43,583 bases of DNA from a phage. A program made the position numbers and the translations under genes. The notes under the pieces are model-generated. The model saw only the letters and a list, made by a program, of their open reading frames with translations, did not search any database and was not told where the DNA came from. Every line of letters starts with the position of its first letter. Position 1 is the first letter of the stretch. Shown piece by piece: positions 9,030 through 39,298 of the stretch. The DNA lies in NCBI GenBank assembly GCA_012646105.1, contig GCA_012646105.1_4328.1; one strand, written 5' to 3'.

Positions 9030-9136
9030 TATTTAATCCTTTGGTTAAGAGGTTACTGGTTAAGGTTAATGCGCCAGGCGGGAACCACCCGCTTTTCGTG
9101 TGCGACACTAGGCGCAAAATAATTCTAACACATTAC

Positions 9137-36121: not shown

Positions 36122-36125
36122 AGTG

Positions 36126-36154
36126 TTGACACCTGAATAGTTAGCTATTATATT
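36126..36154 (+). promoter_or_regulatory. promoter TTGACA-N17-TATATT with TGAATAG-N4-CTATTAT operator in spacer
   Basis: consensus -35, upstream of 36208 gene. Confidence 0.5.
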
Positions 36155-36207
36155 TCTAATCACTGGCCGGGCAGCTTCCCGGAGTAAACTTAAAAGCGAG
36201 AAATCAA

Positions 36208-36837
36208 ATGGGTATTAAACTGAATCTGCGTAAAGTAAACACTGCATGGGTTAACGTATTCGAACGTGCTGCCGACTCTGAGGACAAGAAAACAGGTAAA
36301 CTGATTAAGGGTAAATACCAAGTTACGGTTCTTATGCAGCCTGACCATCCTCAAATTGATGCGCTTTATGATACCGCGCTGGAAGTTGTAACCGAGGCAA
36401 TCGGGGCCGCTGCTGCCGAGAAATGGATGAAAGCCAACTATGGCGTCGACCACCACGCGGACAAGTGCTGTGTACGTGACCTGGCAATGCGAGACAATCC
36501 TATTGAGGATTTTGAAGAAGGTCTGTATTTCCGGGCCACTAACAACCGTCAACCGGTGATTATGACATCGGCTAAAGGTGAAAAACAAACCGAGCCTGAT
36601 TTCAACATCGACGGGAAAGAAATCGAAGGCGAGCAGGTATATAGCGGATGTGTCGCAAACGTATCTGTAGAATTATGGTGGCACAAAGATTGGAAAAACC
36701 TGTGCGCTACCATCCTCGGCATCAAGTATATGGGCGAAGGTAAACGCTTCGGAGGCTCCAGTGTAGTAGCGAGCACCGATGACCTGGAAGACGACGAAGA
36801 AGATGAAGCACCGCGCCGCGAACGTCGTCGCCGTTAA
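36208..36837 (+). CDS. DUF2815-like putative ssDNA-binding protein (209 aa)
   Basis: position between Cas4-like nuclease and DNA polymerase; acidic C-terminal tail. Confidence 0.55.
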   Translation: MGIKLNLRKVNTAWVNVFERAADSEDKKTGKLIKGKYQVTVLMQPDHPQIDALYDTALEVVTEAIGAAAAEKWMKANYGVDHHADKCCVRDLAMRDNPIEDFEEGLYFRATNNRQPVIMTSAKGEKQTEPDFNIDGKEIEGEQVYSGCVANVSVELWWHKDWKNLCATILGIKYMGEGKRFGGSSVVASTDDLEDDEEDEAPRRERRRR

Positions 36838-36856
36838 TATCTGAATCAATTTAACT

Positions 36857-36882
36857 AAGGCCCTTCATTGGGCCTTTTTATT
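36857..36882 (+). terminator. rho-independent terminator
   Basis: AAGGCCC-TTCATT-GGGCCTT stem followed by TTTATT. Confidence 0.6.
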
Positions 36883-36896
36883 AAGGGTCGAAAATA

Positions 36897-37052
36897 ATGA
36901 TTTTCTGTAAGCACGTATACCGCTATATAAAACCGCTTCCGTGGTACGCAGATGAGTACCGGGCCGGGTACAGGCATGTGTGGATTTGCCGCGATTGTAT
37001 GAAAATAAGATTAAGCGAAACGAAGGTACTGGATTTAAGGAAAAAGAAATGA
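36897..37052 (+). CDS. small zinc-ribbon-like protein (51 aa) coupled to polymerase
   Basis: hand translated (MIFCKHVYRY...ICRDCMK); RBS AAGGG; ATGA overlap with polymerase start. Confidence 0.4.
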   Translation: MIFCKHVYRYIKPLPWYADEYRAGYRHVWICRDCMKIRLSETKVLDLRKKK

Positions 37053-39298
37053 GCTATTTATACCTGGACTTTGAAACATTCTCCGAAGCCGATTTAAAGA
37101 AAGTCGGTTCCTACGCTTACGCCGAACACCCAACTACAGAAGTGCTTATCTGTACGTATGCTTTTGACGACGAGCCTGTACAGGTATGGGATTGCACCGA
37201 CGGCAGCGACATGCCGGGAGATTTGCACCGCGCCTTGCGCCGCCTGGTTAAGCCAAACAGCCGCACCAAGATGGTGTGGCACAACGGCTCAATGTTCGAT
37301 AGGCTCGTCATGAAGCACTGCTGGGGTTTTGATATTCCCGTAAGCAACACCATTGATACGATGATTTGGGCGTTTCGCCACGCGTTGCCTGGTTCACTTG
37401 ATGCGTTGTGCGAAGTGCTGGGCGTATCCGCAGACAACGCGAAAGACAAACGAGGCAAGGCGCTGATTCAGCGTTTTTCTAAACCTACACCGAAGAACTA
37501 CAAAATCCGCCGATACACCGCCGAAACGCACCCGGATGAGTGGGCGCTGTTCATCAAGTACGCCGTGAGCGACATCACTGCGATGCGTGAAGTGTTCCAC
37601 AAGCTGCCGCGTTGGGGTAACTCAGAGTTCGAGGACCGTGTACTGGAACTGGACCAGTTAATCAACGACCGCGGGTTTAAGGTTGACGTCGCACTGGCGG
37701 AAGCCGCAATTGAAGCAGTAGAGAAACACAAAGCGCAGTTACAGGAAGAAGCACAGCGCAAATACGGCGGCTCGCTTACGGGTAAAGACTTCCTACCGAT
37801 TCTGCGTGAACTTGCACCAGCTCACCGCATCCACAATGCGCAGAAGTCGACGCTTAACGACCTGCTGGCAGATGATGATTTGCCCGACGACGCCCGAACG
37901 ATTATCGAGATGCGCCTCGGAGCCGCGTCCACCGCTTCGACGAAATATAACCCGCTGCTGTTAGGTCGCTCGTCTGACGACCGTCGCCGTGGTTGCATTC
38001 AGTATGGCGGGGCAAAGCGTACATTACGGTTTGCGGGTAAAGGCTTCCAGCCACAGAACCTCGCACGCGGGTACTATCACGACGACCCGAAGAATAAAAA
38101 GAAGAAAGTACGTTATGACTGGATGTCAGAGAAGGACTGGTGGAGAGTAACGCACCCATTGTCCTACGGAATTGACCTGCTGTTTAAAGGCCGTGCGCAT
38201 CGCCGTTTTGATGTGGCAAAACTGACAGCATCTACGGTGCGTAGCTGCATCATACCGGAAGTGGGGCATAAGTTTGTCGTCGCTGATTACTCTAACGTCG
38301 AAGGCCGCGGGTTGGCATGGCTGGCGGGAGAAGAAACCGCTCTCGATACGTTCCGTGCGGGATTGGATATTTACTGCGTAACCGCGGGTAAGATGTTCGG
38401 CATGGATCCTGATTACATTCTCGAAAGCCGTAGTGACCTGCGCCAGATTGGTAAAGCCTGCGAACTTGGCCTCGGCTACGCAGGCGGTGTCGGAGCTTTC
38501 GTTCAGTTTGCTAAGAACCTCGGCTTAAACCTGGTTGATATGGCAAAAACAATGGACGGGACTTTCCCTGACCACATCTGGGCCGCTACCGCACGTGGGT
38601 ATGAGTGGGCACGTATTCAGGAAGCCAAGAGACCGCCACGTCCTGGTGAAAAAGATGACCGACCATCATATATTCTTGATAAGAAAGTGTGGCGCACCTG
38701 CGACGCTATCAAGCGCATGTGGCGCGAGTCTCACCCGGAAACAGTAGCTTTCTGGCGAGATATTGAAGATGCAGCTATGGCGGCTATCCGTAATCCCGGT
38801 AAAGAGTTCACTGCGGGGCCGCGCGGCGTTAAGTTTTCGCGCAGCGTAGAGACAGACAACAACGGCAACAAAGTCGCTGGTTGGTGGTTGCGCATGACGT
38901 TGCCGTCGGGTCGCGTTATGTCCTACCCTGGCGTAGGGTTAAGTGTGTCGAAAGAGACCGACGAAGACGGAAAGGTATCTACTAACGTGCGCATCAAGTA
39001 CCAGGGCGAAAATCAGTTAACACGACAGTGGGGCTTCCAGTACACCTACTCCGGTAAACTGGTGGAAAACTGCACTCAGGCGCTGTGCCGTGATTTGCTG
39101 GCGAATGCGCTGCTGAACGTAGAAGCAAACGGCTACCCGATTGTACTTCACGTACACGATGAGATTATCTGCGAGACACCCGATTTACCGGAATACAATG
39201 TAGCTGAACTGGAAAAATTAATGTGCGCGTTGCCTGAGTGGGCTGAAGGGTTCCCTCTTGTAGCAGAAGGTCAGGAGTTAAAACGCTATGCCAAGTAA
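37049..39298 (+). CDS. DNA polymerase, family A, with 3'-5' exonuclease domain
   Basis: exo motif YLDFETFS, motif B RQIGKACELGLGYAGG, motif C HVHDEI; ATG 37049 with AAGGA RBS (ORF-track start 36980 is GTG). Confidence 0.85.
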   Translation: MSYLYLDFETFSEADLKKVGSYAYAEHPTTEVLICTYAFDDEPVQVWDCTDGSDMPGDLHRALRRLVKPNSRTKMVWHNGSMFDRLVMKHCWGFDIPVSNTIDTMIWAFRHALPGSLDALCEVLGVSADNAKDKRGKALIQRFSKPTPKNYKIRRYTAETHPDEWALFIKYAVSDITAMREVFHKLPRWGNSEFEDRVLELDQLINDRGFKVDVALAEAAIEAVEKHKAQLQEEAQRKYGGSLTGKDFLPILRELAPAHRIHNAQKSTLNDLLADDDLPDDARTIIEMRLGAASTASTKYNPLLLGRSSDDRRRGCIQYGGAKRTLRFAGKGFQPQNLARGYYHDDPKNKKKKVRYDWMSEKDWWRVTHPLSYGIDLLFKGRAHRRFDVAKLTASTVRSCIIPEVGHKFVVADYSNVEGRGLAWLAGEETALDTFRAGLDIYCVTAGKMFGMDPDYILESRSDLRQIGKACELGLGYAGGVGAFVQFAKNLGLNLVDMAKTMDGTFPDHIWAATARGYEWARIQEAKRPPRPGEKDDRPSYILDKKVWRTCDAIKRMWRESHPETVAFWRDIEDAAMAAIRNPGKEFTAGPRGVKFSRSVETDNNGNKVAGWWLRMTLPSGRVMSYPGVGLSVSKETDEDGKVSTNVRIKYQGENQLTRQWGFQYTYSGKLVENCTQALCRDLLANALLNVEANGYPIVLHVHDEIICETPDLPEYNVAELEKLMCALPEWAEGFPLVAEGQELKRYAK

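Follow-up and report, generated by a model that had tools for sequence, protein, structure and literature searches.

Com of phage Mu is a translational activator, a small zinc-finger protein whose gene lies directly before mom and overlaps it. The Lar-type restriction-alleviation zinc-ribbon proteins are accessory proteins borne by prophages. Closest in sequence to the gene described here is a 'hypothetical protein' of 51–52 amino acids that is annotated in phages of the Guernseyvirinae and to which no function has been assigned. The DNA analysed is a stretch of 43,583 nucleotides (the window) from a Kagunavirus-like phage (Guernseyvirinae). It contains, at 36897..37052 on the plus strand (ATG at 36897, TGA at 37050-37052), an open reading frame, ORF51, for a basic and putatively zinc-binding mini-protein of 51 amino acids with a pI of 9.8 (MIFCKHVYRYIKPLPWYADEYRAGYRHVWICRDCMKIRLSETKVLDLRKKK). 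The product is 86–96% identical to the Guernseyvirinae protein, lies at the same position and shows the same ATGA overlap with the gene for DNA polymerase.

The likeness to Com lies in the combination of a small, basic, putative zinc-finger protein with a gene that stands directly before, and overlaps, a downstream gene. However, none of 23 members of the ORF51 family matched the Com family of Pfam (E<=1 to 10), there is no inhibitory RNA hairpin at the polymerase ribosome binding site (RBS) beside ORF51, and members of the family elsewhere are not tied to one downstream gene. Lar-type proteins, likewise phage accessory proteins, contain a zinc ribbon within ~50–65 amino acids and may be carried by one phage and lacking in its close relatives, but ORF51 has no HMM match to them and its ligand pattern is a different one; an anti-defence role for ORF51 is pure conjecture. 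Zinc-ribbon and rubredoxin-like zinc-knuckle mini-domains resemble ORF51 in that two ligand pairs are placed ~25 residues apart on a sheet that is predicted to be three-stranded, and the second ORF51 pair has the form of the classic hairpin-turn knuckle, [WIL]-[IVC]-C-x-x-C. The first pair in the ORF51 family, in contrast, is C-x-H, C-x-x-H or H-x-H and not CxxC, and no significant sequence or fold match links ORF51 to any solved zinc ribbon. We consider ORF51 to be best filed in an unnamed family of hypothetical phage proteins already annotated in several GenBank records.

A megablast search with positions 36200-37700 matched 132 phage records at ~90–95% identity. The relatives are nearly all members of Kagunavirus or Jerseyvirus (Guernseyvirinae), with Escherichia, Salmonella, Raoultella and Klebsiella as hosts. 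Locally, the gene for a PD-(D/E)XK exonuclease is followed by that for a Gp2.5-like ssDNA-binding protein and then by that for a family-A DNA polymerase. For the ORF of the ssDNA-binding and annealing protein (DUF2815; 36208..36837, plus strand), the annotation of relatives gives either 'ssDNA binding and annealing protein, Gp2.5-like' or 'DUF2815'. Behind it, on the same strand, a consensus scan and RNA folding identified an intrinsic-terminator-like hairpin, AAGGCCC-TTCATT-GGGCCTT, with a T-rich tail (36857..36882; hairpin 36857-36876), which is kept in all relatives, including the phages in which the slot taken by ORF51 is empty. Next come, again on the plus strand, a Shine-Dalgarno sequence, AAGGG (36883..36887), 9 nt before ATG 36897, and ORF51 itself, whose conserved Cys and His residues C4 (36906-36908), H6 (36912-36914), C31 (36987-36989) and C34 (36996-36998) are candidate ligands. 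A second Shine-Dalgarno sequence, TAAGGA (37036..37041, plus strand), lies inside ORF51 codons L47-R48-K49 and 7 nt before the ATG of DNA polymerase I (family A; 37049..39298, plus strand; MSYLYLDFETF..., with the start as annotated in relatives). The polymerase ATG occupies 37049-37051 and the ORF51 stop codon 37050-37052, which gives the ATGA overlap. The elements thus stand as the initial annotation had described them: 51 codons with C4-x-H6 and C31-x-x-C34, downstream of a hairpin and a Shine-Dalgarno sequence, and joined to the polymerase start by ATGA. Its statement that ORF51 has an RBS of its own is only partly apt: the Shine-Dalgarno sequence is present, but in relatives with an empty slot the very same RBS directly serves the polymerase.

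No promoter-like site was found between the terminator (36876) and ATG 36897. The interval leaves no room for a promoter, so that ORF51 and the polymerase gene are probably expressed together by read-through of the hairpin. Folding of the RNA from 36840-37090 gave a z score of 0.51 relative to shuffled sequences; the terminator hairpin is the only stable structure, and the polymerase RBS is A-rich and open. A structured RNA or riboswitch in place of a gene was considered and rejected on the basis of this z score and of the lack of any Rfam match in the region. The sole Rfam match above the gathering score in the window is an int-alpA RNA (RF02996) at 9054-9118 on the minus strand (36.9 bits, E = 3.8e-4). 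The GC-content of ORF51 is 42.9%, compared with 50.4% for the window, a value that reaches only the 11th percentile.

The gap between the exonuclease gene and the gene for the ssDNA-binding protein (window 36122-36207) is a second polymorphic slot (compare L001, L002, L003 and L016). The window has at this place a sigma-70-like promoter close to consensus, TTGACA-17-TATATT (36126-36154); in RP180, AV104 and Bas72 a 67-amino-acid ORF is found there, and in SHAK7693 and Ivi an HNH endonuclease. SHAK7693 (GenBank OR594180.1, L001) is filed as Autographiviridae/Kayfunavirus, which is odd given that its DNA is ~95% identical to the Kagunavirus-like window.

The 5 kb surrounding ORF51 are overlapped by 52 ORFs of at least 30 amino acids. 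The size of ORF51 is therefore not significant in itself, and the case for a gene has to be made by comparison with relatives. Using tblastn, the protein was found in 36 GenBank phage records at 82–96% amino-acid identity; 16 of the 33 annotated GenBank relatives call it as a 'hypothetical protein' (the annotated copies include SHAK7693_0047/WVW77726.1, Bas72_0043, Schulenberg_044/QEG06832.1 and YP_010749023.1 of vB_EcoS_fFiEco02). The copy in the window differs from the Guernseyvirinae copies at I2, I11 and V44. Pairwise pN/pS values (Nei-Gojobori) for ORF51 copies mostly lie between 0.02 and 0.3: between L001 and L003 there are 11 synonymous differences and one that is non-synonymous (pN/pS 0.02). 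The 12 distinct intact DNA copies differ in 33 columns, 22 of which correspond to the third position of a codon (chi-square p = 2.6e-4). The 3' block GGATTTAAGGAAAAAGAAATGAGCTA, which contains the second Shine-Dalgarno sequence, is near-invariant at the nucleotide level across ORF51 copies. It is the conservation, the synonymous-biased substitution pattern and the existence of remote homologues that set ORF51 above chance, and the comparison argues that ORF51 is a genuine, conserved small phage gene under purifying selection.

The gene is not a constant feature of the locus. In phages phiSD1 (L004) and ST20 (L009) the sequence ...ACTAAGGGTCGAAAATA-ATG runs directly into the polymerase; in the window the same Shine-Dalgarno sequence and ATG start ORF51, and the polymerase follows 153 nt later. 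A precise 153-nt indel between the common RBS/ATG and the polymerase thus separates the ORF51 allele from the empty allele. The last codons of ORF51, TTA AGG AAA AAG AAA TGA, comprise a new Shine-Dalgarno sequence and the ATGA overlap for the polymerase. The frequency of the alleles was determined in IMG/VR, using the terminator and RBS sequence as search pattern: among the 34 contigs with the same terminator and RBS, 23 are empty, seven carry ORF51 and four carry a different ORF (ORF92). In GenBank, ORF51 is present in 36 of the 132 relatives and ORF92 in 14 (at 80% identity or more); ORF51 is missing from roughly 60% of the relatives with an orthologous polymerase at ~92% nucleotide identity. 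Neighbour-joining trees of both flanking genes show the ORF51 and empty states interleaved, which points to repeated loss, gain or recombinational exchange.

ORF92 is a 92-amino-acid ORF (phrog_9585) that occupies the same slot in vB_Eco_K-01 (L005:1702-1980; XKC20960.1) and in L032, L039, L043 and L044. Like ORF51, it starts at the shared ATG behind the shared upstream RBS and at its end overlaps the polymerase by ATGA, and it contains CxxC...CxxHxH; homologues were found in 100 phage records, which span very different groups of phages and genome sizes of 40–313 kb. Kinship between ORF51 and ORF92 was considered and rejected: the hhalign probability of ORF92 against the ORF51 family is 0.25%, and the two are unrelated.

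Two copies of ORF51 appear damaged. That of Salmonella phage Jersey, the Jerseyvirus type phage (L014:1201-1356, L042), has an in-frame TAG at codon 20 together with several extra missense changes, the result of either gene decay or faulty sequencing. A Logan contig of 44,652 nt (P0002) encodes a 45-amino-acid variant whose residues 22–45 follow a second frame across ~29 nt that are read twice; this indicates that the variant, which corresponds to window positions 36897-37005, has been frameshifted by a short internal duplication. The Jersey and P0002 copies fit a gene that can be lost, and also one of weak or conditional benefit. The presence and absence of ORF51 between close relatives with conserved flanks, and its patchy distribution, are those of an accessory cassette. 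The own promoter and terminator of classical lambdoid morons were not found; ORF51 borrows the polymerase RBS and appears to be co-transcribed with the polymerase gene. Judged by this distribution, ORF51 is an optional, dispensable accessory cassette that most close relatives lack.

Beyond the Guernseyvirinae the family is small. A word-indexed search returned two, and then 11, clusters of the ORF51 family; an exhaustive HMM search among 1.84 billion proteins returned just 16 representatives at E <= 1e-3. All members whose source was examined belong to phage genomes or phage-like contigs. The initial annotation had named conservation of the ORF and of its Cys residues in relatives as a means of checking its proposal: the ORF is conserved in the 36 GenBank records, and among 23 family sequences (23–92% identity) H6, C31 and C34 never vary and G24 hardly does. 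In every family member H6 is preceded, at a distance of one or two residues, by a Cys or His, in the form C-K-H, C-x-K-H or H-K-H, and most have in common the motif W-[YF]-E-D-x-Y...G-x-R. The four Cys/His candidate ligands accordingly fall into two pairs, as expected of a zinc knuckle, and the pattern probably reflects a single four-ligand zinc site. The pI is 9.3–11 in 22 of the 23 members and the proteins are rich in aromatic residues, a composition that fits a nucleic-acid binder without proving it.

An AF2 model of the protein (mean pLDDT 69, core ~75–79) predicts strands at residues 8–13, 27–31 and 37–40, with both ligand pairs at strand ends: the first pair precedes strand 1, and strand 2 is joined to strand 3 by a turn that contains C31 and C34. 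Comparison of two AF2 models with the PDB using Foldseek gave no significant match (best E = 0.57), and a fold search of BFVD returned only the ORF51 protein itself and other uncharacterised phage proteins. A profile search of the PDB yielded nothing beyond generic CxxC-knuckle noise (E >= 0.23). Scans of ORF51 and 22 homologues with Pfam, NCBIfam and PADLOC found no family match, the curated defence models of PADLOC giving 0 matches for the 23 members; in PHROGs there was a weak match only, to phrog_7696 (unknown function). The CxxCH found in some homologues prompted consideration of a remnant of an HNH or homing endonuclease, which was rejected, as no HNH family was matched in Pfam, PHROG or NCBIfam. 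The literature on Kagunavirus returned by our search consists of genome announcements, with nothing on ORF51.

Remote homologues, at 30–56% identity, occur in Drexlerviridae, in other siphoviruses and in a podovirus-like contig with a single-subunit RNA polymerase. In Drexlerviridae the gene lies in tightly packed arrays of small genes upstream of terminase; in Klebsiella phage VLCpiS13d and related contigs it lies in an island of small genes between tail genes; and in the siphovirus Flyfo it adjoins DUF2591 and superinfection-immunity genes. A homologue of 53 amino acids (P0011, L051:4001-4162) is encoded immediately upstream of the single-subunit RNA polymerase gene of a 44.9-kb contig. In none of the contexts examined does a remote homologue have a DNA polymerase as its neighbour. 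In L051 the family is again found before a polymerase-type gene, though one for RNA and not DNA polymerase. Three of the Drexlerviridae homologues (IMM-001, TR1 and TR2; ATI17068.1, UVD31729.1 and UXQ90327.1) bear the label 'transcriptional repressor'; no evidence was found behind it, and the label was not adopted.

Several other explanations of the locus deserve consideration, and two of them turn on the frame of the polymerase. In the window this frame is open upstream of the ATG as far as GTG 36980, which yields an apparent N-terminal extension (36980..37048, plus strand), and the initial annotation had held that only one of the two overlapping readings was likely to be real. Were the polymerase to initiate at GTG 36980, ORF51 would be a chance ORF overlapping the extension; in Schulenburg the polymerase is annotated from a point 57 nt upstream of the ATG, which agrees with a start of this kind. 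The frame is, however, open in this window alone, because R32 of ORF51 is encoded by CGC and not CGT, a difference without effect on the ORF51 protein. The other distinct copies, 12 out of 12, read V-D-L-P-stop in this frame, the fifth codon being TGA, and some of them contain additional stops. Nine sites vary within the overlap, and six of these combine the third codon position of ORF51 with the first of the polymerase frame. Furthermore, the polymerase of empty-slot relatives begins M-[S/G]-Y-L-F-L-D-F-E-T right behind the common RBS, and annotation in relatives generally puts the start at the position equivalent to ATG 37049. Initiation at GTG 36980 has next to no probability. The stops in the other copies and the polymerase starts of the empty-slot phages place the true start at ATG 37049 and mark the extension as an artefact; of the two overlapping readings it is ORF51 that holds. 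Relative to ORF51 the polymerase frame is the -1 frame, and no copy has a stop in it between 37037 and the ATG. Within this stretch lies G-AAA-AAG (37040-37046), whose AAA-AAG is known from dnaX-type sites as the slippery pair at the A site, and -1 slippage of some ribosomes would here produce a fusion of the putative zinc finger to the polymerase. Yet the heptamer is imperfect, with G and not A at position 1, RNA folding detected no downstream stimulatory hairpin, the ORF92 cassette has no such slippery site, and the Shine-Dalgarno sequence, spacer and ATGA fully explain the sequence; we regard the production of such a fusion as extremely improbable.

The two remaining explanations concern the relationship between ORF51 and the expression or activity of the polymerase. 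ORF51 could be a leader ORF of which only the translation matters, setting translation of the polymerase by coupling, with a functionless peptide as by-product. The ATGA overlap and the Shine-Dalgarno sequence in the last codons, invariant at the nucleotide level, accord with this, as does the fact that the cassette has displaced the polymerase from its original RBS. Purifying selection at the amino-acid level nevertheless extends along the whole of ORF51 and not just its 3' end, and homologues that do not lie upstream of a polymerase have kept both the Cys/His ligands and the WY.DEY..G.R motif; a mere leader is thus very improbable. The initial annotation had itself suggested a polymerase accessory or regulatory peptide, that is, a subunit or dedicated regulator that binds the polymerase or its mRNA and is needed for normal replication. 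Within the Guernseyvirinae ORF51 always lies directly upstream of, and overlaps, the polymerase start; both genes would be transcribed together behind the same terminator; and the protein is basic, as a nucleic-acid binder would be. The suggestion fails on distribution. ORF51 does not consistently co-occur with the polymerase, given the 23 IMG/VR contigs and the large share of GenBank relatives without ORF51; in some relatives (four contigs of the census) the unrelated ORF92 replaces it; the Jersey copy is an apparent pseudogene; and homologues elsewhere stand not beside a DNA polymerase gene but beside an RNA polymerase gene, tail genes or terminase-proximal arrays of small genes. Nor does any RNA structure sequester the polymerase RBS. 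Relatives that lack ORF51 or carry a stop within it, which had been named beforehand as evidence against the proposal, do therefore exist; they count against a polymerase cofactor and not against the reality of the gene. While we consider an accessory subunit or dedicated regulator improbable, the constant place of ORF51 before the polymerase within the Guernseyvirinae would be compatible with a modulatory effect on polymerase expression.

The explanation that we favor, and hold to be probable, is that ORF51 is a translated gene for a strongly basic mini-protein, carried as an optional 153-nt cassette, and is not a subunit of the polymerase; its zinc site, its coupling to the polymerase and its role in the cell are putative components of this account. 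The argument against a subunit is that ORF51 is dispensable, patchy in distribution, interchangeable with the 92-amino-acid cassette and represented by homologues in the small-gene arrays of other phages. On this account the hairpin at 36857 would attenuate transcription after the gene for the abundant ssDNA-binding protein, and those transcripts that read through would carry both ORF51 and the polymerase. Upon its arrival the cassette would have taken over the original RBS and start codon of the polymerase, while its last codons supply a replacement Shine-Dalgarno sequence and the ATGA, such that the polymerase could still be translated, either by direct initiation or by termination-reinitiation. 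As the polymerase RBS is not hidden in the folded RNA, coupling is probably not obligatory but permissive. The protein probably holds a single zinc ion by means of C4/H6 and C31/C34 in a zinc-ribbon-like arrangement of knuckle, beta strand and hairpin knuckle. Its most plausible activity would be to bind nucleic acid or an acidic protein of the host or its defences; produced alongside the replication proteins, it would act as an accessory factor in the interaction with the host and provide a conditional advantage of the host-interaction or counter-defence type.

A bolder reading is also possible, though we think it unlikely. ORF51 would found a family, as yet uncharacterised, of zinc mini-proteins that are basic and follow the pattern [C/H]-x(1,2)-H...C-x-x-C. 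The genes of this family would pass from one phage to another, unrelated one and plug in as cassettes at the start codons of replication or transcription genes (DNA polymerase here, RNA polymerase in L051), and the products would be counter-defence or host-takeover factors that bind, for example, host nucleic acid or an immunity protein. A more exotic variant, in which a low-level -1 frameshift on G-AAA-AAG fuses the ORF51 protein to the polymerase, is conceivable.

For annotation, the consequences are immediate: the polymerase starts at ATG 37049 and not at GTG 36980, and ORF51, which about half of the GenBank relatives omit, should be called as a gene. As far as can be judged from the sequences compared, ORF51 is real but ordinary, an accessory gene of unassigned role that gives no sign of a new principle. 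The locus is nonetheless a clean example of how a small accessory gene can be slotted into an essential operon without breaking it, and should the ORF51 protein turn out to act in counter-defence or host takeover, a small new family would be added.
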